A stretch of DNA of 64,000 bases. Source: a virus. Shown piece after piece: positions 28,699-56,600 of this stretch; within the stretch, counting starts at the first letter, position 1, and every line of letters starts with the position of its first letter. The stretch covers positions 1 through 64,000 of the IMG/VR virus record IMGVR_UViG_3300028115_000009, one strand, 5' to 3'. A program made the translations under genes and the position numbers. The notes under the pieces are model-generated. The model worked only from the letters and a program-made list of their open reading frames with translations. It was not told the DNA's origin and ran no database searches.

Positions 28699-29603
28699 GA
28701 TATAAAGAATTTAGAGTATCGTTATCGGAACAAACAGCTCCAGGTACAGTAAGTGTCATGGTGTATTTTGAAGATAACACAACACAAGTCATTGATGATA
28801 TTCCTTTATCAGTTTTCAATAGTCCTGATTTTATGTCTCAACTTAGAGAAAGACTATTAAGAAAATACAATAAAATTGTTGTAAGGTATGCAAAAGTAGG
28901 TGATACTAATACACAAGGCAATCCAGATGGTAATACACCTGATACTGAAATTCCTACAACGTTAACTACTAAGCAAGATAAGGATATTGAAATTCAACAA
29001 CGTCCTGATGAGGTACAAGCGCCTGTAGATGATTCTGATAGAACAACCTGGTCCGGAGTTACTATATTATCTCAGTCTGAGGTTGCTGCGATGTACAATG
29101 CGCGAGCAGATAGACTTGACGCTGATAGAGATAACAAAGATGATGAAACTGGTGAAGAAGTTCTAAGACAAGATAACCAAGGTAACTGGGTAGACGCCCA
29201 AGGAAATCCAGCAGGACCTACTATTTCAGTTCCAAAACTAGGCGGCGGCAGCGCAGGTGCAGAAGGCGAAGGAGGCGAAGAAGGCCAAGAAGGTGGACCA
29301 GGAAGCATAATAGGCGATTTATACGATGCTATAACTGGACCCGGTACTAATGAAACTAAATTAATCGATGCTCTAAAAAGAATTAAGTCTCCCGCACAGT
29401 TAACTCAAGTGGTTAGATCTTATAAAGAAGCACATAACAGTAGTTTACCTGACGATATAATAAATGAGTTTTTTTACGATCTCGGAAATAATACACCATC
29501 AGTTGTTGAAGAAGTTAATAATGTAATGGTTCCGTTAGGTTGGAGAATAGTAGGTAATAGATACTCAACCCTTAGATGGGAAAAAGTAACAGGTAATTCA
29601 TAA
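28695..29603 (+). CDS. Putative internal head protein with a C-terminal annexin-like repeat
   Basis: MRYKEFRVSLSE start; LYDAITGPGTNETKLIDAL...QLTQVVRSYKEAHNSSLPDDIINE. Confidence 0.6.
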   Translation: MRYKEFRVSLSEQTAPGTVSVMVYFEDNTTQVIDDIPLSVFNSPDFMSQLRERLLRKYNKIVVRYAKVGDTNTQGNPDGNTPDTEIPTTLTTKQDKDIEIQQRPDEVQAPVDDSDRTTWSGVTILSQSEVAAMYNARADRLDADRDNKDDETGEEVLRQDNQGNWVDAQGNPAGPTISVPKLGGGSAGAEGEGGEEGQEGGPGSIIGDLYDAITGPGTNETKLIDALKRIKSPAQLTQVVRSYKEAHNSSLPDDIINEFFYDLGNNTPSVVEEVNNVMVPLGWRIVGNRYSTLRWEKVTGNS

Positions 29604-31078
29604 TGCAACATTTTTACGACGGTCAAATCCGCAGATATATTACACAAATAGTTCGCTTGATGAGTAACTTTAGTTACAAAGATGGCAAAGGCAACTTGAC
29701 ACAGATTCCAGTAATGTATGGAGATTTGACCCGTCAAGTTGCTAACATTATTAGAGAAAACAGCGAAAACAAAATTCCAAGTGCGCCTCGCATGGCGGTG
29801 TATATCACTGGTCTGGAACTTGATACTAATCGCCTAAGCGATAGTAGTTATGTTAATAAAATGAACATTAGAGAACGTGCATACGATGCTAATGGTCAAG
29901 AGTATTTAAATACCGAAGGTAAGAATTATACAGTAGAACGTCTAATGCCTACTCCGTATACACTAACAGTAAATGTAGATATATGGAGTTCAAATACAGA
30001 TCAAAAGCTACAAATATTAGAACAAATATTAATGTTGTTTAATCCAAGTTTAGAAATTCAAACAACTGATAACTATGTCGACTGGACAAGTTTAAGTGTA
30101 GTAAATTTAACTGGGACAGTTTTTAGTAGTAGATCGATACCTACAGGAACTGAGAGCGACATTGATATTGCTACATTAACTTTTACAACTCCAATCTATA
30201 TTAGTCCACCTGTTAAAGTTAAACGTCTCGGAGTTGTTACGCAAGTCATTAATAGCATCTTTAACGATACCAGAGGTGAGATTGATCTTGATTTATCACG
30301 AGTAGCAGCAGCTGATATTAGAACTCAAGTAGTAGTTGCAAATACAGGCGAAATACAAGAAAAAATCGACAATGAAGGTACATTTATTAATGGAGTTGAC
30401 ATTGCAATTTCGTCCGGTCATGACAACTACGGATTGCTAGTAATGGGAACAACTGCTAAATTAGTCAGAAAAGGCATAGTAGGCGCAGAAACTTGGCCAG
30501 GGTATTTAACATCTATGCCATTTGTATTTGATGCAGGCGTTACTGAATTAAGACTTAATCGCAGAGATTTAGATAACGAAGTTGTGGGCACTGTTGTAGT
30601 TAATCCATTAGATCCATACGAATTATCAATTGTATGGGACGCTGACACGCTACCTGCAGATACAGTTATTAGTGGCCCGAATGGTGATCGTAACAAAATT
30701 GATTATATTATTAATCCGTATAAAACTAATCCTACAGATTTAAAATCAAGTAATCCTCGTATATTAATACTTCTTGATATTAATAATAGTGAAAACGTCG
30801 GGCAAGATGCAGGGTACGAAACCCCTGATAATTTTGCATACGACGGACCAGATGCTTGGAAAAATGCAGACGGTTCTGATTTTGTAGCAGGCGCTAACGA
30901 CATTATTGAATGGGATGGCACTAACTGGATTGTAGTATTTGATGCTAGCGCTCAAGACGACACAGTTATATATACTTCTAATCTTAATACTGGCAAACAA
31001 TATAAATTTGAAAACGGCGAATGGATATTAGCATACGACGGTGAATATCCAAACGGCACTTGGAGACTCGCATACTAA
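29603..31078 (+). CDS. gp15: Tail terminator/sheath stabiliser gp15-like with a C-terminal extension
   Basis: HFYDGQIRRYITQ, IPVMYG, PRMAV, MPTPY and QILEQILMLFNP. Confidence 0.85.
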   Translation: MQHFYDGQIRRYITQIVRLMSNFSYKDGKGNLTQIPVMYGDLTRQVANIIRENSENKIPSAPRMAVYITGLELDTNRLSDSSYVNKMNIRERAYDANGQEYLNTEGKNYTVERLMPTPYTLTVNVDIWSSNTDQKLQILEQILMLFNPSLEIQTTDNYVDWTSLSVVNLTGTVFSSRSIPTGTESDIDIATLTFTTPIYISPPVKVKRLGVVTQVINSIFNDTRGEIDLDLSRVAAADIRTQVVVANTGEIQEKIDNEGTFINGVDIAISSGHDNYGLLVMGTTAKLVRKGIVGAETWPGYLTSMPFVFDAGVTELRLNRRDLDNEVVGTVVVNPLDPYELSIVWDADTLPADTVISGPNGDRNKIDYIINPYKTNPTDLKSSNPRILILLDINNSENVGQDAGYETPDNFAYDGPDAWKNADGSDFVAGANDIIEWDGTNWIVVFDASAQDDTVIYTSNLNTGKQYKFENGEWILAYDGEYPNGTWRLAY

Positions 31079-31091
31079 GATAATTATTAGT

Positions 31092-31532
31092 ATGAAGACT
31101 GATAAGATTATTTGCAGTGGTGCAATCGTATATGCCCTTAATACTAAACGTTTTTTATTCTTACATAGGGTAAAAGGACGCTCTGGTAATTTGTGGGGGC
31201 TTGTCGGTGGCACTAATGAAGGATGCGAATCACCATGGGAAGGTCTTAAACGTGAGATCTTTGAAGAGATTGGTGAAATCTCTATTATAAAAACAATGCC
31301 GTTAGAAACGTTTATTAGTAATGATAGCCGATTCCATTTTCATACATACCTAAGTGTAGTCGATCAAGAGTTTATGCCTTTGCTCAACGAAGAGCATGAC
31401 GGGTATGCATGGGTTGAATTCGGTAAATGGCCAAAACCTTTACACCACGGACTAAAAAACACACTTCAAAATAAAGTTAATTTAAGCAAATTAGAAACAG
31501 TGTTTAAAGTAATTGATTTACTTGACAAATAA
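31092..31532 (+). CDS. NUDIX hydrolase
   Basis: Nudix box GGTNEGCESPWEGLKREIFEEIG and LNEEHDGYAW; start at 31092. Confidence 0.88.
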   Translation: MKTDKIICSGAIVYALNTKRFLFLHRVKGRSGNLWGLVGGTNEGCESPWEGLKREIFEEIGEISIIKTMPLETFISNDSRFHFHTYLSVVDQEFMPLLNEEHDGYAWVEFGKWPKPLHHGLKNTLQNKVNLSKLETVFKVIDLLDK

Positions 31533-31556: not shown

Positions 31557-32699
31557 ATGAAAGTTTTAGTTCTTGGTGATATAATCATCGACAAATACAT
31601 CTACGGAACCAGCACAAGATTAAGTCCAGAGGCTCCTGTCCCTGTAGTTAAGTATCTGCGTGAAGTTGAAACAATAGGCGGCGCAGGTCTAGTATATGAA
31701 AATCTTAAAAGTTTAGGTGTTGATGTTGAACTGTTTAAAACAGATAATGCTAGCAGTATCAAAACTAGAGTAATTTGCGACGGTCATTATATCACACGCA
31801 TTGATGATGACAAACACGCCAACGGCAATGTAGTGCTAGACACTATACGAGCAACTGATTTCTCGCAGTACAACTATGTTATTCTCAGTGACTATAACAA
31901 AGGTGTGTTAGATCGTTCTTTAGAAATTATAGAACATCTTAATAGTTTTGGCTGTAAAGTTATTGTAGATCCTAAACGTCATTCTAGTTATTATAAAGGC
32001 GCATGGTTAGTTAAACCTAATAACAAAGAATATCGTGAGTTAGGATTTGATACTTGGCTAGGTAACATTATTACAACTCACGCACATGACGCAGTACATG
32101 CTAAGATTGACAATGCTGATTATACCGCAATTGTAGATCAAGTCGAAGTATCAGATGTTACTGGAGCAGGTGATTGTTTCTTAGCAGCATTTGTATACGG
32201 TATTGACATTGGAAAAAATTACGCAACTTGTTTGCAAATGGCTGTTGACGCAGCAACTGAAAGTGTAAAACATGCAGGTACATATGTCTTAAGTAAAAAA
32301 GATTTTGAACAATCTATAGTGTTTACTAATGGCGTATTTGATATACTACACAAAGGACATTTTGAACTATTAAAACAAGCTCGCAGTTTAGGTACTAAAC
32401 TTGTAGTAGGTATTAACAGTGACGCAAGTGTTAAAAGGCTTAAAGGCGACAGTCGACCGATTAATGATGAACAAACTAGAATAGAGCAACTTGAAGCATT
32501 GCCTTGGGTAGATGAAGTGTTTGTGTTTAACGACGACACTCCGTATAACTTAATTAAAAGATTAAACCCTGCTCTTATTGTTAAGGGCGGAGATTATACT
32601 GTAGAAACTGTAGTAGGGCATGACTTAGCACCTGTGCATATTGTGCCTACAGTAGAAGGTTACAGTACAACAAGAATTATAGAGGCAAGCAATGCATAA
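31557..32699 (+). CDS. hldE: Bifunctional heptose-7-phosphate kinase / heptose-1-phosphate adenylyltransferase (HldE/RfaE)
   Basis: GDIIIDKY..RLSPEAPVPV, SDYNKG, DVTGAGD; then FTNGVFDILHKGH, NSDASVKRLKGDSRPIN, KGGDY and GYSTT. Confidence 0.92.
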   Translation: MKVLVLGDIIIDKYIYGTSTRLSPEAPVPVVKYLREVETIGGAGLVYENLKSLGVDVELFKTDNASSIKTRVICDGHYITRIDDDKHANGNVVLDTIRATDFSQYNYVILSDYNKGVLDRSLEIIEHLNSFGCKVIVDPKRHSSYYKGAWLVKPNNKEYRELGFDTWLGNIITTHAHDAVHAKIDNADYTAIVDQVEVSDVTGAGDCFLAAFVYGIDIGKNYATCLQMAVDAATESVKHAGTYVLSKKDFEQSIVFTNGVFDILHKGHFELLKQARSLGTKLVVGINSDASVKRLKGDSRPINDEQTRIEQLEALPWVDEVFVFNDDTPYNLIKRLNPALIVKGGDYTVETVVGHDLAPVHIVPTVEGYSTTRIIEASNA

Positions 32700-34128
32700 C
32701 ACAGTAAACAATATAACAATAGTAGGTGGCGGAACAAGTGGATGGCTAACTGCTGCTTATCTTTTAAAGAATACAGCCTGTAATATAACTGTTGTTGACA
32801 AAGAAGTTGGAACGCCTGTTGGAGTTGGAGAAGGCACGTTATTAGGTTTTAAACATTTCTTAGCAGAATGCGGATTTAAACAAGAAGAATGGTTTGATGC
32901 TATCGATGCAACATACAAAGCAGGCATTTTGTTCCCTCAATTTAATGGCGATAAAAACTTAGTATGGCATCCGTTTACATTAAATATGGATTATAGCAAA
33001 TACGATGCCAATGTCTACGAAGCGTTAACATATATTGAACAAGAAAAAATTAACGAATTAATGATGTTTTTTAATATAAGTTTAGAAAACAAAGTAGACA
33101 TTAATAATTTGAATTCTGCATATGCAATGCACATCGATTGCAGTAAGTTAGTTATTTGGTTACAAGAAAAAATATTATCACGTATTACTTTAATTAAATC
33201 TGAAGTAGTTGCTATTAATCGTACAGACAATATCATTAATCATCTTACTCTTAAAAACGGTGATACAATTAATTCTGACTTGTTTGTAGATTGTACAGGA
33301 TTTAATCAAGTACTACAACATAGTCCACAACGAACCGATCTTACTAATAGACTGTTTTGTGACACTGCTGTAGCCGGTCATGTTCCTTACATAGATGCAG
33401 AAGTCGAATGTATGCCTTATGTAGAATGTCCAGCAGTCGACCATGGATGGATTTGGAAAATTCCTGTCCGATCGCGAACAGGAACTGGTTTAGTGTTCAA
33501 TAGAAGTATAACAAGCATTGACGAGGCGAAACAATATCTATGCAAGCATTGGAATGATAGAATCACTCCAGATGATTTAAAAGTAATAGACTGGACCCCG
33601 TATTATAACAAAAATATGTGGGACGGTAATGTTGTTGCTATAGGCCTAAGTGGCGGATTTATTGAACCGTTAGAATCTACTGGTATAGGATCTATTACTA
33701 ATGCTATTGTATATTTGACGCATAGTATTAATACAGGATATTATAATGAATATGATATCGAAATATTTAATAGTACAATGAATGCGCTATATGAAGACAC
33801 TATTGATTTTGTTAATATGCATTACATTTATACAGATAAAAATACACCTTTTTGGAATCATGTTAAAGAAAATATCATTCCGTCAGAAACATATTTGTAT
33901 TACAAAAATATAATAGAAGCCGGAACACCTATTAACTATAACGGAAAGGGTTATTTGTTTGGCGGCGCAAATTGGATTTGTTGGCTGCTGCAATTTGAAA
34001 AGAATATAGGAAAAAATAAAAACATCGATGATGATATTGCAAATGAAATATTATCAAATTGGAGCGAGACTATTTCCGACGTTGATAATAGTCAATATAT
34101 TATTTCTCACTTACAGGCAATTAAATGA
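32692..34128 (+). CDS. Flavin-dependent (tryptophan) halogenase-like protein
   Basis: GGGTSG, GVGEGT, DATYK (catalytic Lys position), FVDCTGF, GWIWKIP and FIEPLESTG. Confidence 0.85.
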   Translation: MHNTVNNITIVGGGTSGWLTAAYLLKNTACNITVVDKEVGTPVGVGEGTLLGFKHFLAECGFKQEEWFDAIDATYKAGILFPQFNGDKNLVWHPFTLNMDYSKYDANVYEALTYIEQEKINELMMFFNISLENKVDINNLNSAYAMHIDCSKLVIWLQEKILSRITLIKSEVVAINRTDNIINHLTLKNGDTINSDLFVDCTGFNQVLQHSPQRTDLTNRLFCDTAVAGHVPYIDAEVECMPYVECPAVDHGWIWKIPVRSRTGTGLVFNRSITSIDEAKQYLCKHWNDRITPDDLKVIDWTPYYNKNMWDGNVVAIGLSGGFIEPLESTGIGSITNAIVYLTHSINTGYYNEYDIEIFNSTMNALYEDTIDFVNMHYIYTDKNTPFWNHVKENIIPSETYLYYKNIIEAGTPINYNGKGYLFGGANWICWLLQFEKNIGKNKNIDDDIANEILSNWSETISDVDNSQYIISHLQAIK

Positions 34129-34934
34129 AAATATTAATAACAGGTCACGAAGGATTTATTGGTAAAAATTTAGCGCCATTTCTTGACAAAGATAATGAGT
34201 TATTCGGATATGAATGGAATCCAGCCGCGTTGCCTGATGTATCTCAATATGATTGGGTTATACATTTAGGAGCAATTAGTGCAACTACTGAACGCGACAT
34301 AGATAAAGTAATGTTGCAAAATTATGAATTTTCAAAGTGGTTGTTTAATGAGTGTAACACCAACGGAGTAAATCTACAATACGCTTCGAGCGCAAGTGTA
34401 TACGGCTCTAACACTGATTTTAGAGAAGACGCACCAAAGCAGCCCCAGAGCTATTATGCAACAAGCAAGTACTTGTTTGACCGTTGGGTTATGCAACAAA
34501 AGCACGACATTATAGTACAAGGATTTCGTTACTTTAATGTATACGGACCGTATGAAGATCACAAAGGAAATCAAGCAAGCCCTATAACCAAGTTCTTTAA
34601 ACAAGCAAAAGAAGAAGGCGTTATTACACTGTTTGAAAATAGTGACAAGTATCTAAGAGACTTTATATATGTAGGTGATTGTTGTAACATACATCGTTAC
34701 ATGCTCACAACATCTGAGAAAGGTATATTTAATATCGGTACCGGAGTTGCAACAAGTTTTCAAACTATTGCAGAATTAGTTGCAAAACGATTTAAAGCTA
34801 AGATTGAATATATTCCAATGCCTGATAATCTTAAAGGACAATATCAAGAATACACATGTGCAAACATAGAACGTTTAAGTAATATAGTAAACATTAACTT
34901 CACAACACCAAAGGATTTTATAAATGGAAAATAA
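34125..34934 (+). CDS. hldD: ADP-L-glycero-D-manno-heptose 6-epimerase (HldD/RfaD)
   Basis: ITGHEGFIG, HLGAISATTE, YASSASVYG, YATSK, RYFNVYGPYEDHKG and YQEYTCA. Confidence 0.88.
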   Translation: MKILITGHEGFIGKNLAPFLDKDNELFGYEWNPAALPDVSQYDWVIHLGAISATTERDIDKVMLQNYEFSKWLFNECNTNGVNLQYASSASVYGSNTDFREDAPKQPQSYYATSKYLFDRWVMQQKHDIIVQGFRYFNVYGPYEDHKGNQASPITKFFKQAKEEGVITLFENSDKYLRDFIYVGDCCNIHRYMLTTSEKGIFNIGTGVATSFQTIAELVAKRFKAKIEYIPMPDNLKGQYQEYTCANIERLSNIVNINFTTPKDFINGK

Positions 34935-35316
34935 ACAGCCAACACGGTTAAGCGGCGCAGTACAAAAAGGCTGGGGCTACGAATTAATTTGGGCTACTAA
35001 CGACAAGTACTGTGGAAAGATTATGTTTTTTAATAAAGAAGGCATGAAGACCAGCATGCATTTTCACAAAGAAAAAGACGAAACATGGTTTATAAATAGC
35101 GGAAAATTTAAAGTACGTTATATTGATACTGCTGATTCGATGCTATATGAAAAAGAATTAAATGAAGGCGATGTTTGGCATAACCCGCCATTAATGCCGC
35201 ACCAATTAGTAGCAATGCAAGATGAATCGAGTCTAACCGAAGTGAGTACTCCAGATAGCGTAGAAGATAATTTTCGTATCGGCCCAGGAGACAGCCAGAC
35301 TGCGAGTAGCAAATGA
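34924..35316 (+). CDS. Cupin sugar-isomerase-like protein
   Basis: KGWGYELIW, SMHFHKEKDETW, PHQL and EVSTPD. Confidence 0.75.
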   Translation: MENKQPTRLSGAVQKGWGYELIWATNDKYCGKIMFFNKEGMKTSMHFHKEKDETWFINSGKFKVRYIDTADSMLYEKELNEGDVWHNPPLMPHQLVAMQDESSLTEVSTPDSVEDNFRIGPGDSQTASSK

Positions 35317-35960
35317 GTAATTATAACATAGTATGGAGCAACGAAGTTAAGAAACAAGAGTATGTTCCTGTATATGACAATATACATAACATTGCTCCTA
35401 AGTGTGTTGTAGGGTTAGATCGAGACGGTGTAATTAATGTCGACAGAGGTACTTACACGTATCGTCCTGAAGATTTCAAACCTATAGACGGTAGCTTAGA
35501 AGCAATTGCTAAACTAAGACGAATGGGTCACAAAATTGCCATTATTACAAATCAAGGCGGAATTGGTAAAGGGCTATACACAGAGTCAGATGTTGACAAA
35601 GTTCATGAGTATATGTTTCAATTGTTAGGCGAAGCAGGTTGTCCAAGTATTGATGCATTATACTATAGCACTACAAGTTTGCGAGAAGACAATTTTGCAA
35701 AACCCAATACTGGAATGTTCAAACGATGCCAGGACGAGTTCAAATACATTAAATTCAAACACGGATACTTTGTAGGCGATAAAATATCCGATCTTAAAGC
35801 TGCATTTAAAATGAGCGCAGTACCAGTCCTTGTACGCACAGGACACGGTGAAGAAACTATCAAAGAACTAAACAAATTCAGTAATCAAAAGATAAAGAAA
35901 AAGACCATCATTTTTGACGATCTTTCTCAGTTTGTTGATTGGTTGGAAAAGAAAAATTAA
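35313..35960 (+). CDS. gmhB: D-glycero-D-manno-heptose 1,7-bisphosphate phosphatase (GmhB, HAD family)
   Basis: LDRDGVIN, ITNQGGIG, KPNTGM, VGDKISDLKAA and LVRTGHG. Confidence 0.88.
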   Translation: MSNYNIVWSNEVKKQEYVPVYDNIHNIAPKCVVGLDRDGVINVDRGTYTYRPEDFKPIDGSLEAIAKLRRMGHKIAIITNQGGIGKGLYTESDVDKVHEYMFQLLGEAGCPSIDALYYSTTSLREDNFAKPNTGMFKRCQDEFKYIKFKHGYFVGDKISDLKAAFKMSAVPVLVRTGHGEETIKELNKFSNQKIKKKTIIFDDLSQFVDWLEKKN

Positions 35961-36532
35961 AAAGTTATTGCAAAGTTTGCACTAATTGTAACTCTTGTAG
36001 CTTGGGTTTGATTATACGTTACATAATGATCCAAGCTACTCGGAAACAATACAACACTTCCTTCTGTCATTTCTGGCACATACTTGTTACCATATATTTC
36101 TGTTTGTAAATTAACCTTTTGAAAAAAGTCATTGCTTGATTTATAGAAAACAAAATCACCACTATTTTCTGGTTTTTCTAACATATACGCACAACTAATA
36201 ACATTTGATCCATTAGAGTGGGCATGCACTTCTTGATGTTGTCCATAGTTGTATCTATTCATCCAAGCCTGGCATCCAATGGAATATTGTCCTATTCCGC
36301 CAATGTCGTTTACATATTTTTCAACTAACGGTAACACACTATTAAAAAACTTATCCCACGGCATTCCTGCAATCGGTTCGTTGCCAAATGTAGAATCTGC
36401 ATTGCAACTCCATCCTACAGGAGTTGCAAAATTAGCATCGTCTACCGAAAATGGAAGAAAGGCTTCTTTAAGCCTTTCGTGGTCTGGCATCTTGCATTCG
36501 TAAATTGGAGTTGAGAAGATCTCATTAATCAT
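35957..36532 (-). CDS. 2OG-Fe(II) oxygenase-like protein (TIGR02466-like)
   Basis: WMNRY..HQEVHAH, ISCAYML, EGSVVLFPSSLDHYV and RVTISANF. Confidence 0.8.
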   Translation of the reverse strand: MINEIFSTPIYECKMPDHERLKEAFLPFSVDDANFATPVGWSCNADSTFGNEPIAGMPWDKFFNSVLPLVEKYVNDIGGIGQYSIGCQAWMNRYNYGQHQEVHAHSNGSNVISCAYMLEKPENSGDFVFYKSSNDFFQKVNLQTEIYGNKYVPEMTEGSVVLFPSSLDHYVTYNQTQATRVTISANFAITF

Positions 36533-38345
36533 TTTTAATAGTTACCAGTTTGTTATACTCAGGTAGATACAAATATTCAATATCGCTACTTGCTAATGTT
36601 CTAAATGCATCATCTAATGTCTCAACTAATGGCTCGCCTCCTAAGTTAAAACTTGTATTAAATACAATCGGTACTCCTGTTTGCTTATAAAGTTCTTTAA
36701 TCAAATCGTAGTAATGCGGATTTTGTTCACGCTTGACTGTTTGGATACGACATGTACCGTCTACGTGAATAATGCTTGGAATTTTTTCTGCAATACCTTC
36801 TTGACAATTCATAGCATACATCATATGCGGAGATTCTTCTAGGCCGCGCATATCAAACCATTCATGTGCATGCTCATGCAAAATAGATCCTGCAAACGGA
36901 CGGAAGTACTCTCTACGTTTAACTTTATTAACAAAGTCTTTACCATTAGGATCAGTTGGGTCATACATGATACTTCTATTTCCTAATGCACGAGGACCAT
37001 TTTCTGATTTACCTTGGAACAAAGTAACAATATTTCTTTCACCGTTTGTTTTACCAGTCATAAGATTAATGACTTCTGTGTTAGTAATATCAGATAATTC
37101 TGCATTATATTTTTCTGCTAACGTATTAATTTCTTCGTCAGTATAGTTGTATTGCGGGCCTAAATATAAGCTGTCTGCAAATGCTCGCTGAGTGTCATCG
37201 TTAGTTAACATATGATAGCCAAATAATGCTGCGCCAATGCACGTACCTGCATCGCTACTTATTGGTTCAACATAAAAGTTTATGCCTTCGCCTTCTAATT
37301 CTTTTAAGTACCAGTAGTTAGCAACACAATTTAAGCCATAACCTCCGCTTAATACAATGTTTTTAATTCCTGTATCTGCAACTGCTTTTCGAATTAAACG
37401 CAGTACTTCTGATTGACTTTGTGTTTGTACTGCGTATGCCATATCACGACGATTCTGCAAATACGTTAATTCGTCTTTGTCTTGAATGTCAGTAGGTGTA
37501 AGTAGATATTCGTAACGACCTTCGTTAATAACAGCGCCGTTTGGATATGTAGGAATAACTAAATTCCTATCAGTTGTACGCCACATGCCGCCATTGCCGT
37601 CTGAGTAAATAGCAGGAACATTGTCGTTTTTCTCTCCGTACGGGAACAGTCCCATAGTCTTACCAGCCTCAATCGGCGACCAACCGCAGTATTGCGTAAC
37701 CGCTTCATATGCCTTTGTAATGCCTGCTGTGTCGTCTATTATTAACTCGTGAGTTTCGCCAGTTTCGCCAAAATTATCACTTGGCATATCTTCAATATGT
37801 GCAGCAGGCCAAGGGCCTCTTCCTCCTTGATGTTTATACACTGTTTTAAAATTAGCAGGGTATCTACAAGTAAAGATAGATTCTAATTCCCAGGTCATTT
37901 CAGTAGTTTCACCCATTTGCATAGGAATAAATGTTCCTGCACCATCTACAATAAGTGCCACTGCATTATCAAAACCTGATCTATAAAATGCACATGCTGC
38001 ATGAAGTTTATGATGCATGTGTGCTAAATCAATTACTTGTGGATGATTATATGGATCTTCTGTTCGAGAAATTAATCCCAACTTACGAGCTAATCCTGTA
38101 TAAACATCGTCACCTGTAAAATCAACAGTTCCTGCTGTTTCTTTTAAAGGCTGTGTATGTGCGATAAACAAGTAATCTAATTTATCAGTGTAATCTAATA
38201 TTTTAAGCATTGATGCGTAAGGGCCGCCGTCGTACTTATGTCTACTTAATCGTTCTTCTTCGATTGCAAAAACAATTTCGCCATCTTTTAATAAGCAAAC
38301 GCCTGAATTATGGCCCCTTGCTATTGCTGCTATCCACTGTGCCAT
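36525..38345 (-). CDS. O-carbamoyltransferase (NodU/CmcH/TobZ family)
   Basis: EEERLSR, HHKLHA, DGAG, GKTMGL, GGYGLNCVAN, GPRALGNRS, RPFA, HVDGTCRIQTV and NTSFN. Confidence 0.92.
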   Translation of the reverse strand: MAQWIAAIARGHNSGVCLLKDGEIVFAIEEERLSRHKYDGGPYASMLKILDYTDKLDYLFIAHTQPLKETAGTVDFTGDDVYTGLARKLGLISRTEDPYNHPQVIDLAHMHHKLHAACAFYRSGFDNAVALIVDGAGTFIPMQMGETTEMTWELESIFTCRYPANFKTVYKHQGGRGPWPAAHIEDMPSDNFGETGETHELIIDDTAGITKAYEAVTQYCGWSPIEAGKTMGLFPYGEKNDNVPAIYSDGNGGMWRTTDRNLVIPTYPNGAVINEGRYEYLLTPTDIQDKDELTYLQNRRDMAYAVQTQSQSEVLRLIRKAVADTGIKNIVLSGGYGLNCVANYWYLKELEGEGINFYVEPISSDAGTCIGAALFGYHMLTNDDTQRAFADSLYLGPQYNYTDEEINTLAEKYNAELSDITNTEVINLMTGKTNGERNIVTLFQGKSENGPRALGNRSIMYDPTDPNGKDFVNKVKRREYFRPFAGSILHEHAHEWFDMRGLEESPHMMYAMNCQEGIAEKIPSIIHVDGTCRIQTVKREQNPHYYDLIKELYKQTGVPIVFNTSFNLGGEPLVETLDDAFRTLASSDIEYLYLPEYNKLVTIKND

Positions 38346-38353
38346 ATTATCTC

Positions 38354-38884
38354 CTAATTATATTCAAAATCTATTACAAAAACTTTACGTTCGTTAATTG
38401 CAGGATAAGATCCGTGATGTATCCCGCCGTCCATTATTATTACATTGCCTGCTTTTGGTTCCCATTCTTTATATCCAATCGCATTCGACATAGAATATAA
38501 ATTTCCAGCATGTGGCCATTTTCTAATCCATTCATAATCTGATAAAAATAATATTGCACTAAATCTACGACTTTGTATATGTTGATGTGCCACAGAATAC
38601 GATCCTGGCGGATAATCAATCCACCAACTACTTGCATATGTTGCATCTTGTAATGTAGTACTTACACTATTTCTTAGAAAGGTAAGGTAATCTTTGGCAG
38701 GATCAACTTCAGTGGGGTATCCGTAATCCCATTTATAAAACATTGTTGATCCACCACGTTCTAAATGATGCTGACAAGACACATCTTTATTATATAAATT
38801 TAAAAATCTTTCATATTCTGGATAATATGTTTCAGTTATCCAATGAAAATTAGTTTGATCAAAAAAAGGTAAATCTATATTCAT
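38354..38884 (-). CDS. Putative 2OG-Fe(II) oxygenase
   Basis: WWIDYPPGSYSVAHQH, FSAILFL, HHGSYP and RKVFVIDF. Confidence 0.65.
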   Translation of the reverse strand: MNIDLPFFDQTNFHWITETYYPEYERFLNLYNKDVSCQHHLERGGSTMFYKWDYGYPTEVDPAKDYLTFLRNSVSTTLQDATYASSWWIDYPPGSYSVAHQHIQSRRFSAILFLSDYEWIRKWPHAGNLYSMSNAIGYKEWEPKAGNVIIMDGGIHHGSYPAINERKVFVIDFEYN

Positions 38885-39405
38885 ACTGCTAACCTATATG
38901 TAAAATCACACACAAACACTTTTCTCGGCTGTAATGTTGGATATGTTCCGTGCCACACAGTGCCATCAAATATATGAAGATTTCCAGCAACTGGACGATA
39001 CTCATTATAATCGCCATTATTTAAAGAATATAAAAATCCTTCATGCGGATTATAATCATCAACTTCTGATGTTGTTAGAAAAAGTACAGAAGTTAGTTGA
39101 GGTCCTGGATTGTGCGAATGAAATCCGTTATAAGAGTGTAGTGGATAATCTACCCACCACGCCTTAGAAAACTCTACATCTTGTAGGAAAGGATATACAG
39201 TTAATGACTGTTTTACAAAATTAATATAATTGTTATTAGTATCAATTTCGTAAGGGTATTTAAATTCGTCTTTATAATAAACTGTTGATCCGCCGCTGTC
39301 TCTATGACTATTTTCATTTAATGAAAAACAATCTAATATATGTCTGTAGTCATTGTAATGCAAATCTAATGCAAACGAACTGTATATTTCAGACAAATAA
39401 TTCAT
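38881..39405 (-). CDS. Putative 2OG-Fe(II) oxygenase, paralog of 38354..38884
   Basis: WWVDYPLHSYNGFHSH, TSVLFL, WHGTYP and RKVFVCDF; likely start MNYLSE at 39405. Confidence 0.65.
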   Translation of the reverse strand: MNYLSEIYSSFALDLHYNDYRHILDCFSLNENSHRDSGGSTVYYKDEFKYPYEIDTNNNYINFVKQSLTVYPFLQDVEFSKAWWVDYPLHSYNGFHSHNPGPQLTSVLFLTTSEVDDYNPHEGFLYSLNNGDYNEYRPVAGNLHIFDGTVWHGTYPTLQPRKVFVCDFTYRLAV

Positions 39406-39406
39406 A

Positions 39407-40402
39407 TTATACTGAGCAGCAACTATTGTCTTCTTCGTTAGGAGGAACATACTGTCCAGTAAATTTTGTAGATCTTCCTAAGCGTTTTCTTACACTATGC
39501 AATACTGCTTGTGTTTGTTCTTTATTCATATCCATTACAGCATCATTTGCTCTATTAACTTCATCTTCCATAGTAAGACGAATAGGATCATATACACGTT
39601 TTCCTTCACCAATGTCAATGATATCAAATGTATCCGAACCAGGGTAGCTAATATTGACAGGGAACGTAGATCCTGTAATCACCGTTGCTGTTTTTCCTAA
39701 GCTCTTTGCAATATGTTGACCGACACTGTCTACTCCTAAAAAGTGATCTGAACAATCTATAACACTCGACCATACACGTAGATCTGGAATCTGAGGCATT
39801 GCTACAGGAAACTTTCCAGTATCTTTTTCTTCAAATGCTACAGGAAATTCGCTCATTAAAATAATTGCATATTCTTTTTTAAGATCGTTTACTATATTAA
39901 TAACACTGTTTAAATGCATGCTTCGAGCAGTAGGATCAATTGTCATTTCTCCCATATTTTGAATTCCGCGACCAAACGGCTGTACTACTAATACTTTATC
40001 AAAACCAGTCTTTGCACGTACTTCTTGTACAATGTTAAAACCTGATACCATCTCTATTTGATTTAAAACAATTTTAGGGTCTTGTAATTCTCTTACACCT
40101 TTATTGTTAATAGCAATGTCAAATGCTTGAGCAAGATTACATTTTTGATTATAATACTCCCAAACACGATATGGTTCTGGGCTTACAATATCACGATGTT
40201 TTAAGTGTTCTTGAAACAGTCCTTTGTGCCAATTATCGTATGCACGATTATGCAGTGTAGGATGTCCTTTGTAAAAGTCCATGCCGCCTTCGCATACAAT
40301 AATAAAATCTTCATCAGTTTCTGCAAGTTTTTCAAATGCAGGAATTGAACTGATAACGCGGCCTGCACCTCCGTTTATAAAATACGCCTTTGGTCTTGAC
40401 AT
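39407..40402 (-). CDS. GT9-like (ADP-heptose heptosyltransferase-like) glycosyltransferase
   Basis: INGGAGRVISSIPA, VVQPFG and DHFLGVDSVGQHIAKSLGKTATVITGST, matching the GT9 DSGxxHxAxA box. Confidence 0.65.
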   Translation of the reverse strand: MSRPKAYFINGGAGRVISSIPAFEKLAETDEDFIIVCEGGMDFYKGHPTLHNRAYDNWHKGLFQEHLKHRDIVSPEPYRVWEYYNQKCNLAQAFDIAINNKGVRELQDPKIVLNQIEMVSGFNIVQEVRAKTGFDKVLVVQPFGRGIQNMGEMTIDPTARSMHLNSVINIVNDLKKEYAIILMSEFPVAFEEKDTGKFPVAMPQIPDLRVWSSVIDCSDHFLGVDSVGQHIAKSLGKTATVITGSTFPVNISYPGSDTFDIIDIGEGKRVYDPIRLTMEDEVNRANDAVMDMNKEQTQAVLHSVRKRLGRSTKFTGQYVPPNEEDNSCCSV

Positions 40403-40521: not shown

Positions 40522-42003
40522 ATGAATAAACATATAAACAGTATAACAGTACTCGGAGGCGGTACAGCTGGATTAGTATCTGCACTCATACTAAAGAAGT
40601 CATTTCCAGAAATTAATGTAACAGTTATACGATCATCTGATATCGGTATAATCGGTGTCGGTGAAGGATCAACAGAACACTGGTCTGAGTTTATGGAATT
40701 TATGAATATTAACGCACGTACTCTTATACAAGAAACAGATGCTACCTTTAAGTCAGGAATTATGTTTAAAAATTGGGGCGGCGAAGATTACTTACAAAGT
40801 ATCGGTGATGGATTTAATATTACTCACAATGGCTATCCTTATATGTACGGACATCAAATTAGTCAAAATAAAAGTCCAAAAGAGTTAGCAAGTCCGCTTG
40901 CTTGGCACAGTAGAGCAAATGTATGGTTCTTAGGACAAGAATCTACTCAAGTACAACAATATCATTTTAATACAAATAAACTTAATACATTCTTAGAAAA
41001 TTTAAGTAATGATTATAATATAAACATCATTGACGACGAAATTATTAATGTTAATTCAAACGAAAATGGAATTGTTAGTTTAGAAGGCAAACAACAATTA
41101 TACGAATCAGATTTTTTTATTGATTGTACTGGGTTTCGCCGAGTATTAATGAACGAGTTAGGGTGTGAATGGGAGTCATATTCTAAATACTTAAAAATGA
41201 AATCTGCAATAGTTTTTCCAATTGAATTTGAAAAAGATGAAGAAATACCTTTGTGGACACTTGCACAAGGAATGGATGCTGGGTGGATGTTTAGATTGCC
41301 AGTGTGGGGACGATACGGAAACGGTTATATATTTGATAGTGACTTTATCACAGCAGACGAAGCACATGCCGAAGTTAACAAATATTTTGGTCGAGAAATA
41401 GAAATTAGTAAACACATAAATTTTGATCCAGGAGCATTGAAAGATACATGGATTAAAAATTGTGTTGCAATCGGACTTAGTGCAAGTTTTGTAGAACCGT
41501 TAGAAGCAAGCTCTATCGGAACCTCAATACAACAAGCATTTTTGTTAACTGAACATCTTATAAATTACAACGATACCAGCATAAAAGATTATAATGCAGA
41601 TTGCAATGACATATTAACAAATATAAGAGATTTTGTTATTTTACATTATTTAGGAAATCGAACTGATACAGATTTTTGGAAAGCTGTATCAGAAACTGAA
41701 TTACCAGATTCACTGACTTCAAATCTTAGTAAATGGAAAAACACACTTCCTTCTGAAAAAGATTTTTCTAAAGTTACTGACAAAATATTGTTTAGTCATT
41801 TCCACTATATTTTAATAATGCACGGTTTAGGGTTATTCGACATTAATAATATTGCACATGAATATAAAATGCGAGTGCCGTATGACAAACAGTTAGAAGC
41901 AGAGCATACTATTACTGAAAACGCAAACGCACCGTATACTACTATACCGCATAAAACAATGTTAGAAGTATTACGGACTATGCGTACTTGGCCTAACTTT
42001 TAA
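40522..42003 (+). CDS. Second flavin-dependent halogenase-like protein
   Basis: GGGTAG, GVGEGSTE, DATFKSGI, FIDCTGF, GWMFRLP and FVEPLEAS. Confidence 0.85.
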   Translation: MNKHINSITVLGGGTAGLVSALILKKSFPEINVTVIRSSDIGIIGVGEGSTEHWSEFMEFMNINARTLIQETDATFKSGIMFKNWGGEDYLQSIGDGFNITHNGYPYMYGHQISQNKSPKELASPLAWHSRANVWFLGQESTQVQQYHFNTNKLNTFLENLSNDYNINIIDDEIINVNSNENGIVSLEGKQQLYESDFFIDCTGFRRVLMNELGCEWESYSKYLKMKSAIVFPIEFEKDEEIPLWTLAQGMDAGWMFRLPVWGRYGNGYIFDSDFITADEAHAEVNKYFGREIEISKHINFDPGALKDTWIKNCVAIGLSASFVEPLEASSIGTSIQQAFLLTEHLINYNDTSIKDYNADCNDILTNIRDFVILHYLGNRTDTDFWKAVSETELPDSLTSNLSKWKNTLPSEKDFSKVTDKILFSHFHYILIMHGLGLFDINNIAHEYKMRVPYDKQLEAEHTITENANAPYTTIPHKTMLEVLRTMRTWPNF

Positions 42004-50620: not shown

Positions 50621-53600
50621 TTATCTTGCTAAGAAGAATCCTAGTGCAACTGGAGCACCATCAATTCCACCTGTAAAGTTCATCTTCGCTTTAATATTTA
50701 GCTGTCCGCCGTTGGTAGTTGTTATTTCATCGTTTGCAATAAACACAACACCTGAAGTTAGTGTGTTAACGTTCAAACTAGACTGACCGCCACCAATCTG
50801 TGCAGTAATGTACGATTTAATCGCACGTTGCGTTGGAACAATGTTATCACTATTTGCAGTAAAGAATGGATCTGTACTGAACTGAGTAATAACAGCTGAA
50901 CCAATACCAAGTCCAATACCGTTAAGCTGCAACGATTGTAGACCTGCTAAGTTAAACGCATCTGCATCCAATGTCGCTGTACCAGTACTCTGTTGAACAC
51001 CGAACAATCCACCAACGTTAAAGTTACCGTCTTGGTCAGTACTTGTAAAGAACACTCGTCCGCCACCACTTGATAGCTGTTGCACATCTTGGTTAGCTGT
51101 AGTAATATCAACATACGGATAGTTAGTATCAGCTTGGTTACCAGTACCAATGTACAAGAAGTCATGTCCTGTTAGACGTACTTGCGAGTACTTATTAGTT
51201 GTAGTAACTAATGTACCGTCTAGAGGTGCATCAAGTATAGTTAATGCAGGACTAATTTGGAAAGTTGCATTATAGTTGCCTTGACTTCCAAGTATGCCGC
51301 TCACTGCTACTAGTTTGTACCAAGTACCAGTTTTGCTTGCAAACACAATGTTTGAACCAGGTATCGGTAAGTCAAACAATCCGCGTACAGCAATAAATGT
51401 ACTTGCCTGGAACAAGTCTGAATAGCCATCGCCTGCTACTTCAACTGTTGCTGTTTGATAACCTGAACCTCTGTTAGTGAAGCTTGGGTTAGCAAGTGCG
51501 CCATTGCCTTGTCTTGCATGAACCGGAGCATCAATAGTTGAGTTAGGATCAGTAATAGTTGCAATCGGCCCTGCTTTAAATGTTGCTCCAGTTAATGTAG
51601 TAGTTTCAATAGCAACCGGTGTGCCACTACCTGCAATTAGACTTACAGTAATAGTTGTTCCACTTGGTATAGTGTTAATATAGTATGGTGTTTCATTTAC
51701 TAATCCTGAATCAGTAACATTAGTAAATGTAATTGGTTGATTCTGTACTAAACGTGCTGTTGAATCTAAAGTGATTGTGTTCGCACTAGTAGTACTTACT
51801 ACTGTTCCGTTTGGATAACCTGAACCAGGTTCAACCATTCTAGTCGAAATAATAGAACCATCAGTTTCTACTAGTCTACCTAATGCTTTAGCACCAGTTT
51901 CAACATAGTTAACAACATTATTTGCTGCATTAGTAAATGCTGCCCAGATTGGCTTGCTATTTGGATTACCAAACACTAGCCCGTTCCACGCTGCGCTTGA
52001 ACCAAGTGCTTGTTCATTCCATGTAATACCGTCTGTACTTGTTGCACACACCGCAGTACCTTCGGCTACTGCTATGAACAAACCTTGTCCATATTTAACT
52101 TTAGACCAGTTGCCTGCTGTTGGTAATCCTGCTGGTGATGCAACCCAAGTTGCACCTTTGTCGTAACTAACTGCAACTTCTCTGCTACCTGTTGCAATAG
52201 CAACAAATCTACCATTTCCGTATGCAACACTAGCCCAAGTATTTGAGGATGGTAATGTACCACCTTCTGCCCAAGTAATGCCGTTAGCACTTTTTGCTAC
52301 TTTATTGCCACCTGTGTTGATTGCAACATAAGTAGCTGCGCCATATGCTACACCGCTAAATGTACCAGCACTTAATGTAATGTTAGTTCTTGAAACCCAA
52401 GCACTGCCATCTGTTGATGTTGCAGCACTTCCTGATCCGCCTGCGCCGCCTACTGCAACATACACTCCGTCACCATAAGTTACAGAAGTAAAGTTGCTGT
52501 TTGGCAATGCAGTTCCTGCACTCCATGTATTGTCTGACTTAGCATTAGCAAGTGTTATGTTAGCGTTACTTGTACTACCGTTTGCAATAGCTACAAACTT
52601 GGCGCTTGCATCAATAATTTCAATAGTAGGAACACTAGTGTATCCAGCGCCTACTGTATCAATAGTGATACTTGCTACGCCTTCGTTATCCATAACTGCT
52701 GTTGCTGTTGCAGATTCTGATGCGCCTCCGCCACTAATTGTAACAGTAGGTGTAGTTTTGTAACCATTACCAAACGAGTCAACAATGATTTCAGTAACTT
52801 TATCAGTTTCAGCAGTAATAGTTGGAACTGCGCCATAACCAGCACCTGTACTTGTCATGATTACTTCTTGAATCACTCCATTAAGAACTGTACATACTGC
52901 ACTTGCGCCACCGCCGCCTGATGTTGGAGTAATAGTTATCGTTGGAGCACTTGAGAAACCTTTACCGCCATTAATAACATTAATCTGTTTAATCTGCGTC
53001 GGTCCTGGTAAGCCAATGCTGTTTAATTCTCCTAGTTCGGCCTCAAGCACTGCGCCTGATCCGCCTAATCCACCAATAATAACACGAGCTGTTGCTCCTG
53101 TGCCGCCACCAAACGCAACATCTGCCCAGTTAGCACTTGTACTTAATGCACCACTTGATGTCCAAGTTTTGCCATCAGCAGATGCATAAGTAGCTGTTCC
53201 GCCATTCTGTAGAGCAACAAAGTGTCCATCAGCATATGATGCAGCTCTAATTGATTCTGTACCACTTGTAGTTGTTGCTGTAGCAACATAGCCTGGACCT
53301 GTAAACTTAATGCGAGGCTCAATTGTGTAGCCAGATGTTAGATCTAGACCAGCAGCAATTGGAGTTCCTGGAATAACATGATCCCATCCCGCAGCATATA
53401 GTGTTACACTACCTGTAGCAGTTGACAGCGTTACATCTGCTCCGCCTTCTTCGTCGCTAACTGTAAACTGTGTTCCACTTGTTATAGCAGTTACATAGTA
53501 ATCATTAGCAGCAGTTAATCCACCAATGTCATCGCTTAGATAAATTGGCATATCAACATACAATGATGCTGTGCTTGCAACTGTTAATACATTTGTAGTA

Positions 53601-56600
53601 ACTGTAGTGTTAGTAACTGTTAAGTTTTCAAAGCTGTCTTTATAAACTTTAGCAACTTTAAGACCGTTGTTATATGTTAAAATGTTACCATATTGTCCTA
53701 CGCCAGTACCTGCTGTAATCTGAATGCGCATACCGTTGTATGCCCCAAGCAATGCTGTATCAGTAGCAGCAATAGTAGCACTAATTAAGTCACCGCCCTG
53801 TGCAACGTTTTTAGCAGTTACATAATCTGCACCACCTGTCTCGTTACCGTCATCTAAGTCAATTAAGCGTGTTTCAAATATTGCACCGTCACGTGTTTCA
53901 TCAGCAATAGTTGTTGCGTTAAAGCCTGATCCACTAATTGCATATTGTGCGTTAGTGTAATCGCGACCAGCGTTATCAAATTCGAAGCGGAATACTTGTT
54001 GATCACCATCAGTAATAACTTCTGATATGTATGCTTCTTGTGACAAGTTATCAACTTCACAGTACAATGGAACTTCACCGGTATCTGTGCCTTCAGCAAT
54101 CGTACCATATGTACCATATGAACTGTTACCGTTTGTAGCACGAATACGTCCACCTAAGTCGGCTAAGTATCCTGAATAGTTGTAGTATGCGAACACAGAC
54201 ACAAGTTCTGTTAGTGAGTTATTACCGCTACACCATACACCGATACCATCTGATAGTACTTGTGTAAAGTCGTTGCTAACTGTTGATCTGTTGCCGCCAG
54301 CGTGTAATGCACCATCAATCTTGTTACCAACACAACCAACACCAAAGTTAGTTACGTTCTGAATGTATGGAGATTTATTAGTAATCCATGCTTCTGTATC
54401 CCATGGACCAAATCCTGGATCAAGCGATACATATGCACCTGCTGTTGGACGTCTTGTACCAAACTCATTAAGTTCAGTTAAGTTTCCTCTTAGACCGCTT
54501 AGTGTCATATTACGAACACCAGTTGAGTTACGTACATAGAACATGTCTGAGCGCTCTGAACCTTCTACTGCATTCAAGTACAATATTGCAGCTCTTAATG
54601 CATGGTGGTTTCCTGGATACTGTAGATCATGTGCTACAGCTTCAACATAACGAATCATGTCTCTACGGCATGCAACAGGATCAAACGAGTATGTAACTGT
54701 AGCTTCTGTTACTCCGCCTGTTACAATAGTTACTTCTGTGCCACCAATAGTTGTGCTTACAGTGAATTGCTCAGGTGCTAATATCGCCTTTACATAATAA
54801 GTAATGCCCGGAGTCAATTCATCAATTGTATCACTAAACACTACAGGATCATTAACTGCTAAATTATGTGCCGTTGATGTTTGAACTGCGTTATTACCAT
54901 TTGACACTGCTGTAACTGTATTACTAAATGTTTGTGTTACCCAAGCAGTTGCTTCATTTGCTAAGAAATTTTTGTTAGCTTTAAGAATTTCAACACCTTT
55001 TGCAACTTCAACGTTGTTGTAGTAGGCAATAGTGCCAGTAGTTTCCGGAGTTTCATTAACACCTTTGTCAAGCATATTAATGATAATATCCATTAAGCTA
55101 TTTGCTCGTTTTACTGCTGTTGGAGAAGCGGTAATATATGATGCTATTTTATTTTTAAGTTCTCTGTATGATTGTACAGTTGCAGTTTTCTGAGCACCTA
55201 GTACTAGATCTGCTTGCGCACCGCGATAATATGCACTTGCTGCTGCAATTGTGCGATAGTTACTATCGACCATCATATCGTAACCAATAGCATCAACAAT
55301 GTAGCCAACGTCTCTTGCACACTTATCTTCGTCGTACACTAGTGTTGGATAATTATCTGCAATATATTGAGTAATAGCAGTTTTAATAATTTCCTTAGAT
55401 CCTGATAAGTTGAGATTTTGTTGCTTAATGACAGCATTAACACTACTAATATCTGGATTACTTTTATTAACTATTAGTGTTTCTGTACTAGTACTATCTG
55501 ATAGTACATGTGTTGTACCATTAAATGTTTCTGATATTGTAAAAGTAGTAGTATTTGGAACACTCTTAATATAATAAATTTGACCGCCTGTGACTGTATC
55601 AAATCCGCTCACTGATGATACTTCATCGCCTATTTTAAAGTTATGTTCTGCATCTGACGTTAATACATTAGATGTTACGTCAACAATTGTAACTGTGTCA
55701 AATGCTGAAACACCGTCATTAATAAGTGCAATAGCATAATCCATTAGTGCTACGACTCTTAATGCTGAGTTAGCATCACCAATAATTTGTACATTTTCGT
55801 CTCTAAATACAGGTGTTACTTCAGTTTGAATTGCATAAGGACTTCCTACTTGGTTTATTGCTAAATCACTTGCTAAGAATTTAACCCATTCGTAGGCTGC
55901 GATTGTTGCAACTTTATCGTTTTCGTCAATTTGTAACGTTGTGCCTACGTAGTATGCCATTGCTGCTTCTTGAGTTGCAGAAGTTCCGCCGTATACTAAG
56001 TCGTAACGTAATGCATCGATTAATAGTCCTACGTCACGAATACATTTTTCTTGACTAAATTCTACTAATGGATATTCAGCTGCAATAAATGCAAGAACTT
56101 CTGCTTGTATAAACTCTTTGTTATCCCAAATAGTTATAGCAGCCGCAGCATCATTTTCGTCAACTGTTGATAACGCTTTAATTCTAAGTGTAGGTTTCTT
56201 ACCGCCGTCAATGTATGCTGTAATGTCATTAATAATAAGTTCTGCATGTGCAGACGCTGTTGTTGCTGCTATGTGTTTAACTTTTTGTTTCAAGAAGTTA
56301 ACAGCACCTACTGATGCATCTAACTGGTTGTTTGTAACAATTGCAGTTGATGCAAGTATTCTGTAGTATGCCATTCCTGCTTTAATTGAAGCAAAGTTTG
56401 AACCAGTTAACATGTCACGTATTACTGCATCAGTCATTAGACCGGTGTCTCTACGACAAGTTTCTTGATTGTATTGTAGTTTCTGCCAGTTCTTCTCTAC
56501 CCAGTAAACTGTATCTTCAATAATTTCATATCTACGTGAAACTAATGCATCATAAGATGTTTTAACTTCAAGGCCAGCCCAATCAGTTGCAATTTCAATA

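Follow-up and report, generated by a model that had tools for sequence, protein, structure and literature searches.

Heptose synthesis serves the inner core of lipopolysaccharide (LPS), capsules and S-layer glycans, and ADP-heptose is an innate-immune signal. The first step of this synthesis is catalysed by GmhA (PF13580, TIGR00441; EC 5.3.1.28), a protein of SIS fold which converts sedoheptulose-7-phosphate to D-glycero-D-manno-heptose-7-phosphate and which, to our knowledge, is regarded as the enzyme by which heptose synthesis universally begins in bacteria. As far as we know, the ADP- and GDP-heptose routes share the isomerase and phosphatase steps only; the kinase and nucleotidyltransferase of the GDP-heptose route are not homologous to HldE. 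An analogous ketose-to-manno-aldose isomerisation, one carbon shorter, is performed by cupin phosphomannose isomerases (PMIs). The present analysis concerns a 130-aa cupin encoded in a 64,000-nucleotide stretch of viral DNA (IMG/VR record IMGVR_UViG_3300028115_000009, positions 1 to 64,000), hereafter called the window. We consider it fairly probable that this cupin is a metal-dependent, PMI/lyxose-isomerase-like sedoheptulose-7-phosphate isomerase which replaces GmhA and is unrelated to it in fold.

The candidate and GmhA would carry out the same reaction, the first step of both ADP- and GDP-heptose synthesis, and their distribution among phages is complementary. However, GmhA is an alpha/beta SIS domain whereas the candidate is a beta-barrel cupin, no sequence similarity links the two, and none of PF13580, PF01380 and TIGR00441 matches the window protein. 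Among described cupins, the type II PMI domain (PF01050, the C-terminus of ManC) and the archaeal PMIs (PDB 7zvy, 7zvm) are, like the window protein, metal-binding cupins of ~110-130 residues, and the nucleotidyltransferase-isomerase fusion represented by ManC (a bifunctional GMP-PMI) is paralleled by some of the cupin-adenylyltransferase fusions reported below. Solved PMIs nevertheless share 17-18% identity with the window cupin, whose partners are enzymes of heptose and not of mannose metabolism. The D-lyxose/D-mannose isomerase cupins (PF07385; PDB 2y0o, 7nzo, 3kmh) have in common with it the H-x-H-x2-K-x-E segment of the metal motif, but these proteins are longer (~170-225 aa), use sugars that bear no phosphate and are unlinked to heptose genes.

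The cupin gene belongs to the following set of consecutive genes:

31557..32699, + strand: HldE-like bifunctional heptose-7-phosphate kinase/heptose-1-phosphate adenylyltransferase, 380 aa (PfkB 9.8e-14, CTP_transf_like 1.2e-21)
32692..34128, + strand: Trp-halogenase-family flavoprotein, between hldE and hldD (PF04820 1.2e-79)
34125..34934, + strand: HldD-like ADP-glycero-manno-heptose 6-epimerase, a short-chain dehydrogenase/reductase (SDR) of the short type, 269 aa (TIGR02197 3.4e-73, 246.6 bits for a cut-off of 274.6; PF01370 2.9e-33)
34924..35316, + strand: single-domain metal-binding cupin, 130 aa, candidate sedoheptulose-7-phosphate isomerase in place of GmhA
35313..35960, + strand: GmhB-like HAD-IIIA heptose-1,7-bisphosphate 7-phosphatase, 215 aa (PRK08942 8.3e-43, TIGR00213 3.3e-27)

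Kinase, phosphatase, adenylyltransferase and 6-epimerase functions are encoded together in the window. The HldE-like protein was further matched by PRK11316 (1.2e-79), rfaE_dom_II (6.6e-48) and rfaE_dom_I (4.3e-47), all under their curated cut-offs, and the HldD- and GmhB-like proteins likewise score beneath the curated equivalog cut-offs, the E-values for the three ranging from 1e-43 to 1e-80.

The initial annotation had described a 130-aa cupin overlapping both hldD and gmhB, in an operon with kinase/adenylyltransferase, epimerase and phosphatase but devoid of a SIS-type gmhA. Family searches bore out this gene content, the lack of gmhA extending over the whole contig, and the open reading frame (ORF) was confirmed: its start overlaps the 3' end of the hldD-like ORF, which ends at 34934, by 11 nt, its stop overlaps the gmhB-like start (35313) by 4 nt (ATGA), and an AGGA lies 8 nt 5' of its ATG. 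Judged from the sequence, hldD, cupin and gmhB are arranged as in an operon with translational coupling. The cupin ORF is a real gene under purifying selection and not a chance ORF, because proteins of similar length include 4,551 relatives of it (E<=1e-3), because 2,726 cluster representatives are related to it as well, and because it keeps 70-90% amino acid identity over 80 viral loci, where it is conserved at least as well as its neighbours, and displays a median dN/dS of 0.11 against the window copy (20 of the 61 comparisons, those with unsaturated dS). The nearest ESM Atlas clusters were 86-100% viral, and a near-DNA search of GenBank phages gave no match.

Sequence and fold both place the protein among the metal-binding cupins. 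It was matched by Cupin_2 of Pfam (1.8e-6, 28.0 bits for a cut-off of 27.2), by Cupin_1 and by phrog_7851 (2.5e-38). Cupin motif 1 is complete, G40-x5-H46-x-H48-x4-E53-x6-G60 with K51 within it, the stretch reading G40...H46-F-H48-KEKD-E53-TWFINS-G60 (residues 44-55 of the 130 are SMHFHKEKDETW), and H93 is the histidine of motif 2. Both motifs stand on a double-stranded beta-helix, the AlphaFold model (pLDDT 93) being an all-beta barrel of 11 strands. G40, H46, H48, K51, E53, G60 and H93 are invariant in 13 canonical relatives, as are the basic K15, K32 and R118, a pattern that would fit the binding of both a metal and a phosphate.

A search of IMG/VR returned 526 matching stretches, from the best 80 of which the locus counts were taken. 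The order nudix-hldE-hldD-cupin-gmhB recurs among these 80 loci, with hldE in 77, hldD in 79, the cupin in 80 and gmhB in 69; many of the loci without gmhB are on contigs that end ahead of this gene. Oxygenase and halogenase neighbours differ from locus to locus. The hldE-hldD interval was free of halogenase matches throughout the 80 related loci (the sole match, in locus L029, was elsewhere in the locus), and the halogenase gene at 32692..34128 is therefore a local addition, outside the conserved core.

No match to SIS_2, SIS or TIGR00441 was detected anywhere in the 87,572-base contig containing the window, an absence which applies to the contig and not to the whole phage since CheckV completeness is ~24%. 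The complete genomes of the seven cupin-bearing phages S-SM2, S-CAM3, P-SSM2, Bellamy, S-SSM7, S-T4 and P-TIM68 gave 0 matches to SIS_2, for which the true GmhA of Caulobacter phage Cr30 served as positive control (1.1e-17). The same was observed for IMG/VR contigs of the window's lineage (0/50, the largest of 169 kb), and a query with E. coli GmhA found no match in the 80 related loci. Conversely, E. coli GmhA matched 13 of 50,697 phage records (tblastn), none of them cupin-bearing. GmhA adjoins a heptose kinase, a glycosyltransferase and an epimerase in Cr30 and is also carried by the huge phage LR756504, and members of the cupin family were found in neither of these two whole genomes. A test of whether the cupin and gmhA exclude each other in phage heptose operons had been suggested initially, their routine co-occurrence in the same genomes being named as an observation that would speak against replacement. 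Such co-occurrence was not seen in the seven complete genomes or the 50 related contigs, and exclusivity agreed with both GmhA-bearing phages checked and with the absence of any cupin-bearing record among the GmhA matches. Supply of the heptose intermediate by the host is doubtful, because heptose is lacking from the LPS of two marine Synechococcus strains, WH8102, which is recorded as host for three cupin-bearing phages, and CC9311 (PMC4515613).

A search of cellular sequences with the single cupin protein retrieved only five loci, which resemble phage contigs assigned to the wrong bin or another kind of fusion protein. On contig L087 (CALFYV010000090.1, 546 kb, binned as Bacteriovoracaceae), a cupin homologue was observed amid genes for RecA, a DEAD helicase, a dCMP deaminase and an amidoligase, with an HldE-like ORF of 481 aa ~12 kb off; this contig may be a mis-binned huge phage.

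Homologues sharing 37-45% identity with the cupin were found by tblastn in 35 GenBank phage records, all of cyanomyoviruses or marine single-cell viral contigs, and were inside a heptose gene cluster in every record whose context was read. HldE-positive cyanophage and marine records were all cupin-positive, except for one 4-kb fragment. The described counterpart of the window module is formed by the cyanophage clusters T4-GC 304-308 (P-SSM2 PSSM2_309-313, annotated as LPS/heptose genes), which represent the same five-function cassette and in which the cupin is T4-GC 307 (43% identity). In cyanophages, however, kinase and adenylyltransferase are encoded by two genes and the phosphatase belongs to a mini-HAD type of ~110 aa, whereas the window encodes a fused HldE and a canonical GmhB.

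Several of these records annotate a 'phosphoheptose isomerase' directly beside the cupin, and a cyanophage genome report lists this enzyme among phage heptose genes (PMC7378029). In the records examined, the label is borne by the mini-HAD: the proteins concerned (T4-GC 306, phrog_1238; 103-114 aa) match the capsule biosynthesis phosphatase family TIGR01689 (~1e-8), HAD-IIIA and HAD_PNKP, and display the HAD motifs DIDGT, FTAR and GKP...DD. With these phosphatase features and no SIS match, T4-GC 306 was rejected as a GmhA beside the cupin. The public labels 'cysteine dioxygenase' for the cupin and 'phosphoheptose isomerase' for the HAD protein are not supported by the family matches. The mislabelled mini-HAD genes are:

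L003:5652-5993: P-SSM2 PSSM2_311
L001:4065-4373 and L001:5706-6032: two genes of this type
L002:5688-6005: one gene of this type

Two further observations concern individual cyanophages. The cupin homologue of S-T4 (L101:6001-6330) is annotated as a coding sequence of 186 nt although tblastn aligns ~110 residues, which is probably an annotation or frameshift problem. In P-TIM68, gp190 (L102:2935-4077), a protein of 381 aa encoded just upstream of the heptose kinase, consists of pyruvate-dehydrogenase E1 alpha-like and beta-like (transketolase-family) halves.

Association with heptose enzymes was not limited to the ADP route. The cupin of Bellamy lies between an HddA-type GHMP heptose-7-phosphate kinase (7.2e-83) and an HddC-type guanylyltransferase (4.2e-17), and a Gmd-like dehydratase and an RmlD-like reductase come next after HddC:

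L099:4973-8771: Bellamy gp215-219, namely HddA, cupin, HddC, RmlD-like reductase and Gmd-like dehydratase

This set looks like a complete GDP-6-deoxy-heptose route. The cupin is present in ADP-type (HldE) and GDP-type (HddA/HddC) heptose modules alike. It also occurs fused to heptose enzymes, several of the fusion relatives having 58-66% identity. One protein of 501 aa joins a whole HldE to it (PfkB-adenylyltransferase-cupin, P0304), and fusions with the adenylyltransferase exist in both orders, as cupin-adenylyltransferase (P0293, P0295 and others) and as adenylyltransferase-cupin (P0226, rfaE_dom_II 3e-29). HAD phosphatase-cupin fusions were represented by P0196 (TIGR01689 1.5e-14) and P0135, and in one case the partner was a methyltransferase (P0303).

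These data bear on the non-orthologous replacement of GmhA that the initial annotation had put forward, and they support it through synteny, fusions, occurrence in ADP and GDP modules and kinship with PMIs and lyxose isomerases. The substrate and reaction that we infer are as follows. Sedoheptulose-7-phosphate would come from the pentose phosphate pathway and its open-chain form would place O1 and O2 on a divalent metal held by H46, H48, E53 and H93, while the 7-phosphate would be held by K15, K32 and R118, three conserved basic side chains. The proton would be moved between C1 and C2 by E53, with K51, via an ene-diolate, the route taken by phosphomannose, phosphoglucose and lyxose isomerases of cupin type, giving the manno-configured aldose D-glycero-D-manno-heptose-7-phosphate. 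HldE would then phosphorylate C1, GmhB would take off the 7-phosphate, HldE would adenylylate the product, HldD would invert C6 and a GT9-like enzyme would transfer the heptose; the carbamoyltransferase, 2OG-Fe(II) oxygenases and halogenase-like flavoproteins encoded nearby may tailor the product.

The pathway itself is a textbook one, and the novelty would reside in a proposed first enzyme that is non-homologous to the known one. On balance, though with some reserve, the data favour the view that sedoheptulose-7-phosphate isomerases comprise a second class, of cupin fold, which occurs almost exclusively in viruses, namely marine jumbo phages and T4-like cyanophages. Such an enzyme would enable the synthesis of ADP- or GDP-heptose from a pentose-phosphate intermediate even in hosts without envelope heptose such as marine Synechococcus, the sugar then being placed by a phage GT9-like heptosyltransferase. 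If this holds, the cupin would be a clear case of non-orthologous displacement, and two widespread cyanophage mislabels, the 'cysteine dioxygenase' cupin and the 'phosphoheptose isomerase' mini-HAD, would be corrected. Many abundant ocean phages would possess a self-contained heptose pathway plus a transferase, raising the question of what gets heptosylated (virion proteins, the host surface or other acceptors), and tools for pathway reconstruction would no longer call the heptose pathway incomplete where the cupin is present.

Comparison with specific families was performed on 51 family members, among which 22 matched Lyx_isomer (PF07385), 19 MannoseP_isomer (PF01050; best E-value 3.1e-6) and 19 the CapF C-terminus (Polysacc_synt_C, PF14667); GMP_PMI was also matched by relatives. 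The window cupin itself had no match to PF01050, nor to any cysteine-dioxygenase family of Pfam or NCBIfam, at E<=0.01. It scored 15.8 bits with PF07385 (cut-off 20.8), residues 26-58 being aligned on positions 84-114 of a model of ~220 positions, 21.4 bits with PF14667 (cut-off 28.7) and 19.7 bits with TIGR04366 WbuC (cut-off 42). Searched against the PDB, the family profile matched lyxose isomerase chains, CapF being absent at E<=0.01, and no PDB sequence was matched by the one lyxose-isomerase-like relative used as a query. A subgroup of the cupins (P0125, P0134, P0144, P0156, P0159, P0176, P0180 and P0195; alignment A1) has lost some or all of H46, E53 and H93 and has kept the N-terminal motifs WG-E and Y-GK; its members may be non-catalytic or differently catalytic paralogues.

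A number of observations weigh against a sedoheptulose-7-phosphate isomerase. The contig containing the window and the largest related contig tested for SIS cover ~24% and ~46% of a genome, respectively (CheckV for the former), a full-text search of the literature yielded nothing relevant on a cupin sedoheptulose-7-phosphate isomerase or on a cupin with heptose in cyanophages, and the window cupin remains under the curated cut-off of every specific family. In VIA-align comparisons its model comes closest to the cupin domain at the C-terminus of CapF (Z 16.1, rmsd 1.9 A over 110 residues, 14% identity), and PF14667 is matched within the family as often as the PMI domain (19/51 each), TIGR04366 WbuC being matched weakly. 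These similarities may indicate a CapF/WbuC-like metal-dependent epimerase, or another tailoring enzyme, which would act with the adjacent SDR on the finished nucleotide-heptose to give a modified heptose, heptose-7-phosphate coming from the host GmhA. CapF and WbuC (PF14667, TIGR04366) represent the C3-epimerase of a UDP-4-keto sugar in L-FucNAc synthesis, a cupin next to an SDR as in the window, where the 11-nt overlap with the 269-aa SDR resembles the SDR-plus-cupin layout of CapF. All cupin-bearing genomes checked also encode an SDR (S-T4 has one, ~7 kb from the cupin), and the dehydratase and reductase near the Bellamy cupin are a usual setting for sugar epimerases. Furthermore, reliance of a phage on its host for the isomerase step is possible in principle since the huge phage LR756511 has HldE but neither GmhA nor the cupin.

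We hold such an epimerase to be rather unlikely. Fold is of little help here, since many other cupins lie within ~1.5 Z of the CapF domain: KdgF and two archaeal cupin PMIs had Z of 14.6-14.7 (14.7 for the 110-aa PMI of Thermococcus) and lyxose isomerases 13.6-13.9, quercetinase, oxalate decarboxylase and many other cupins were in the same band, and a putative cysteine dioxygenase of B. subtilis reached 13.4. These cupin enzymes use metal-bound ene-diol(ate) or related chemistry, and such generic neighbours in a narrow band of Z mean that aldose-ketose isomerases and keto-sugar epimerases cannot be told apart by fold. The window SDR is HldD-like instead of CapF-like, its match to HldD (3.4e-73) being far closer than that to the CapF/WbcJ reductase (2.5e-9). 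The keto intermediate of HldD stays on the enzyme, and ADP-type modules are without a dehydratase that would make a free keto-sugar. Fusion partners of the cupin are sugar-phosphate enzymes (kinase, adenylyltransferase and phosphatase), and no cupin-SDR fusion was found among the matches examined; CapF was likewise missing from the profile's PDB sequence matches at E<=0.01. An epimerase would also leave all cupin-bearing phages without an isomerase, including those whose host LPS is heptose-less, and would not account for the absence of the cupin from GmhA-bearing phages.

Two other functions can be based on existing labels and similarities. As relatives are labelled 'mannose-6-phosphate isomerase-like protein (cupin superfamily)' and match PF01050 and GMP_PMI, and as the 110-aa Thermococcus PMI is of similar fold, the cupin could be an ordinary small PMI, or another hexose or pentose (phosphate) isomerase, feeding a parallel mannose-type sugar-nucleotide route. 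This appears most improbable: the partner families are heptose-specific (HldE, GmhB, HldD, HddA, HddC), the window has neither a phosphomannomutase nor a GDP-mannose pyrophosphorylase to go with the cupin, and, by chemistry, mannose would offer a 6-epimerase of HldD type no stereocentre to invert. That the cupin is an oxygenase or a binding protein devoid of catalysis, for instance the 'cysteine dioxygenase' of the RefSeq/PHROG label of phrog_7851 or a tailoring partner of the 2OG-Fe(II) oxygenases and halogenase-like flavoproteins, is very improbable as well. Quercetinase and oxalate decarboxylase are among the high-ranking matches in sequence as well as fold comparisons, and the subgroup devoid of H46, E53 and H93 would suit a non-catalytic role, but the oxygenase matches span the generic cupin motif only and no cysteine-dioxygenase Pfam family was matched at E<=0.01. 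Moreover, tight linkage and fusions concern heptose-phosphate enzymes, whereas oxygenase and halogenase neighbours vary between loci.

Beyond the heptose cassette, the neighbouring genes include:

29603-31078, + strand: tail-sheath-stabiliser-like structural protein (34% identity to the PA5oct, Atu_ph07 and Phosso proteins)
31041-31532, + strand: Nudix gene, directly 3' of the tail-sheath-stabiliser gene, as in PA5oct, Atu_ph07 and Phosso
36525..38345, - strand: NodU/CmcH-type carbamoyltransferase (Carbam_trans_C 3e-58, Carbam_trans_N 8.2e-26)
39407..40402, - strand: GT9-like (heptosyltransferase-like) GT-B glycosyltransferase, 331 aa (Foldseek of the model; no Pfam family)

The GT9-like gene was present in 34 of the 80 related loci. 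When its protein model (pLDDT 71) was searched with Foldseek, nine of the ten top matches were GT9/ADP-heptose transferases (3tov, TibC, WaaF, WaaC; E 8e-8 to 2e-5), with modest TM-scores of 0.42-0.52, and one source labels a 71%-identical relative 'ADP-heptose:LPS heptosyltransferase'. To judge from this model, the enzyme probably consumes the ADP-heptose product, and its presence in the module argues that ADP-heptose is really made, a plausible consumer being at hand. Since the heptose acceptor of TibC is a protein, the GT9-like enzyme could likewise act on a protein, of either the virion or the host.

The carbamoyltransferase, found in 49 of the 80 related loci and adjoining the heptose cassette also in P-SSM2, S-CAM3 and Bellamy, is probably involved in sugar tailoring. 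It is flanked by three small 2OG-Fe(II)-oxygenase-like genes at 35957-36532, 38354-38884 and 38881-39450 (all on the - strand), the two downstream copies being weak in Pfam; together with the carbamoyltransferase they suggest further tailoring of the sugar or of its acceptor. A second Trp-halogenase-family flavoprotein is encoded in the sugar island at 40522-42003 (+ strand), and a gene of this family adjoins the heptose genes of S-SSM7 too.

The Nudix gene was rejected as a member of the heptose module. It follows the tail-sheath-stabiliser gene in PA5oct-like phages which were not retrieved by the HldE search, and this shared position makes it part of the phage backbone. The window stems from a jumbo myovirus of the sea that has not been cultured, a distant relative of PA5oct, Atu_ph07 and Phosso, with a genome of roughly 350 kb as calculated from CheckV completeness. 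A single ORF of 3,722 aa occupies positions 50621-61789 (- strand).

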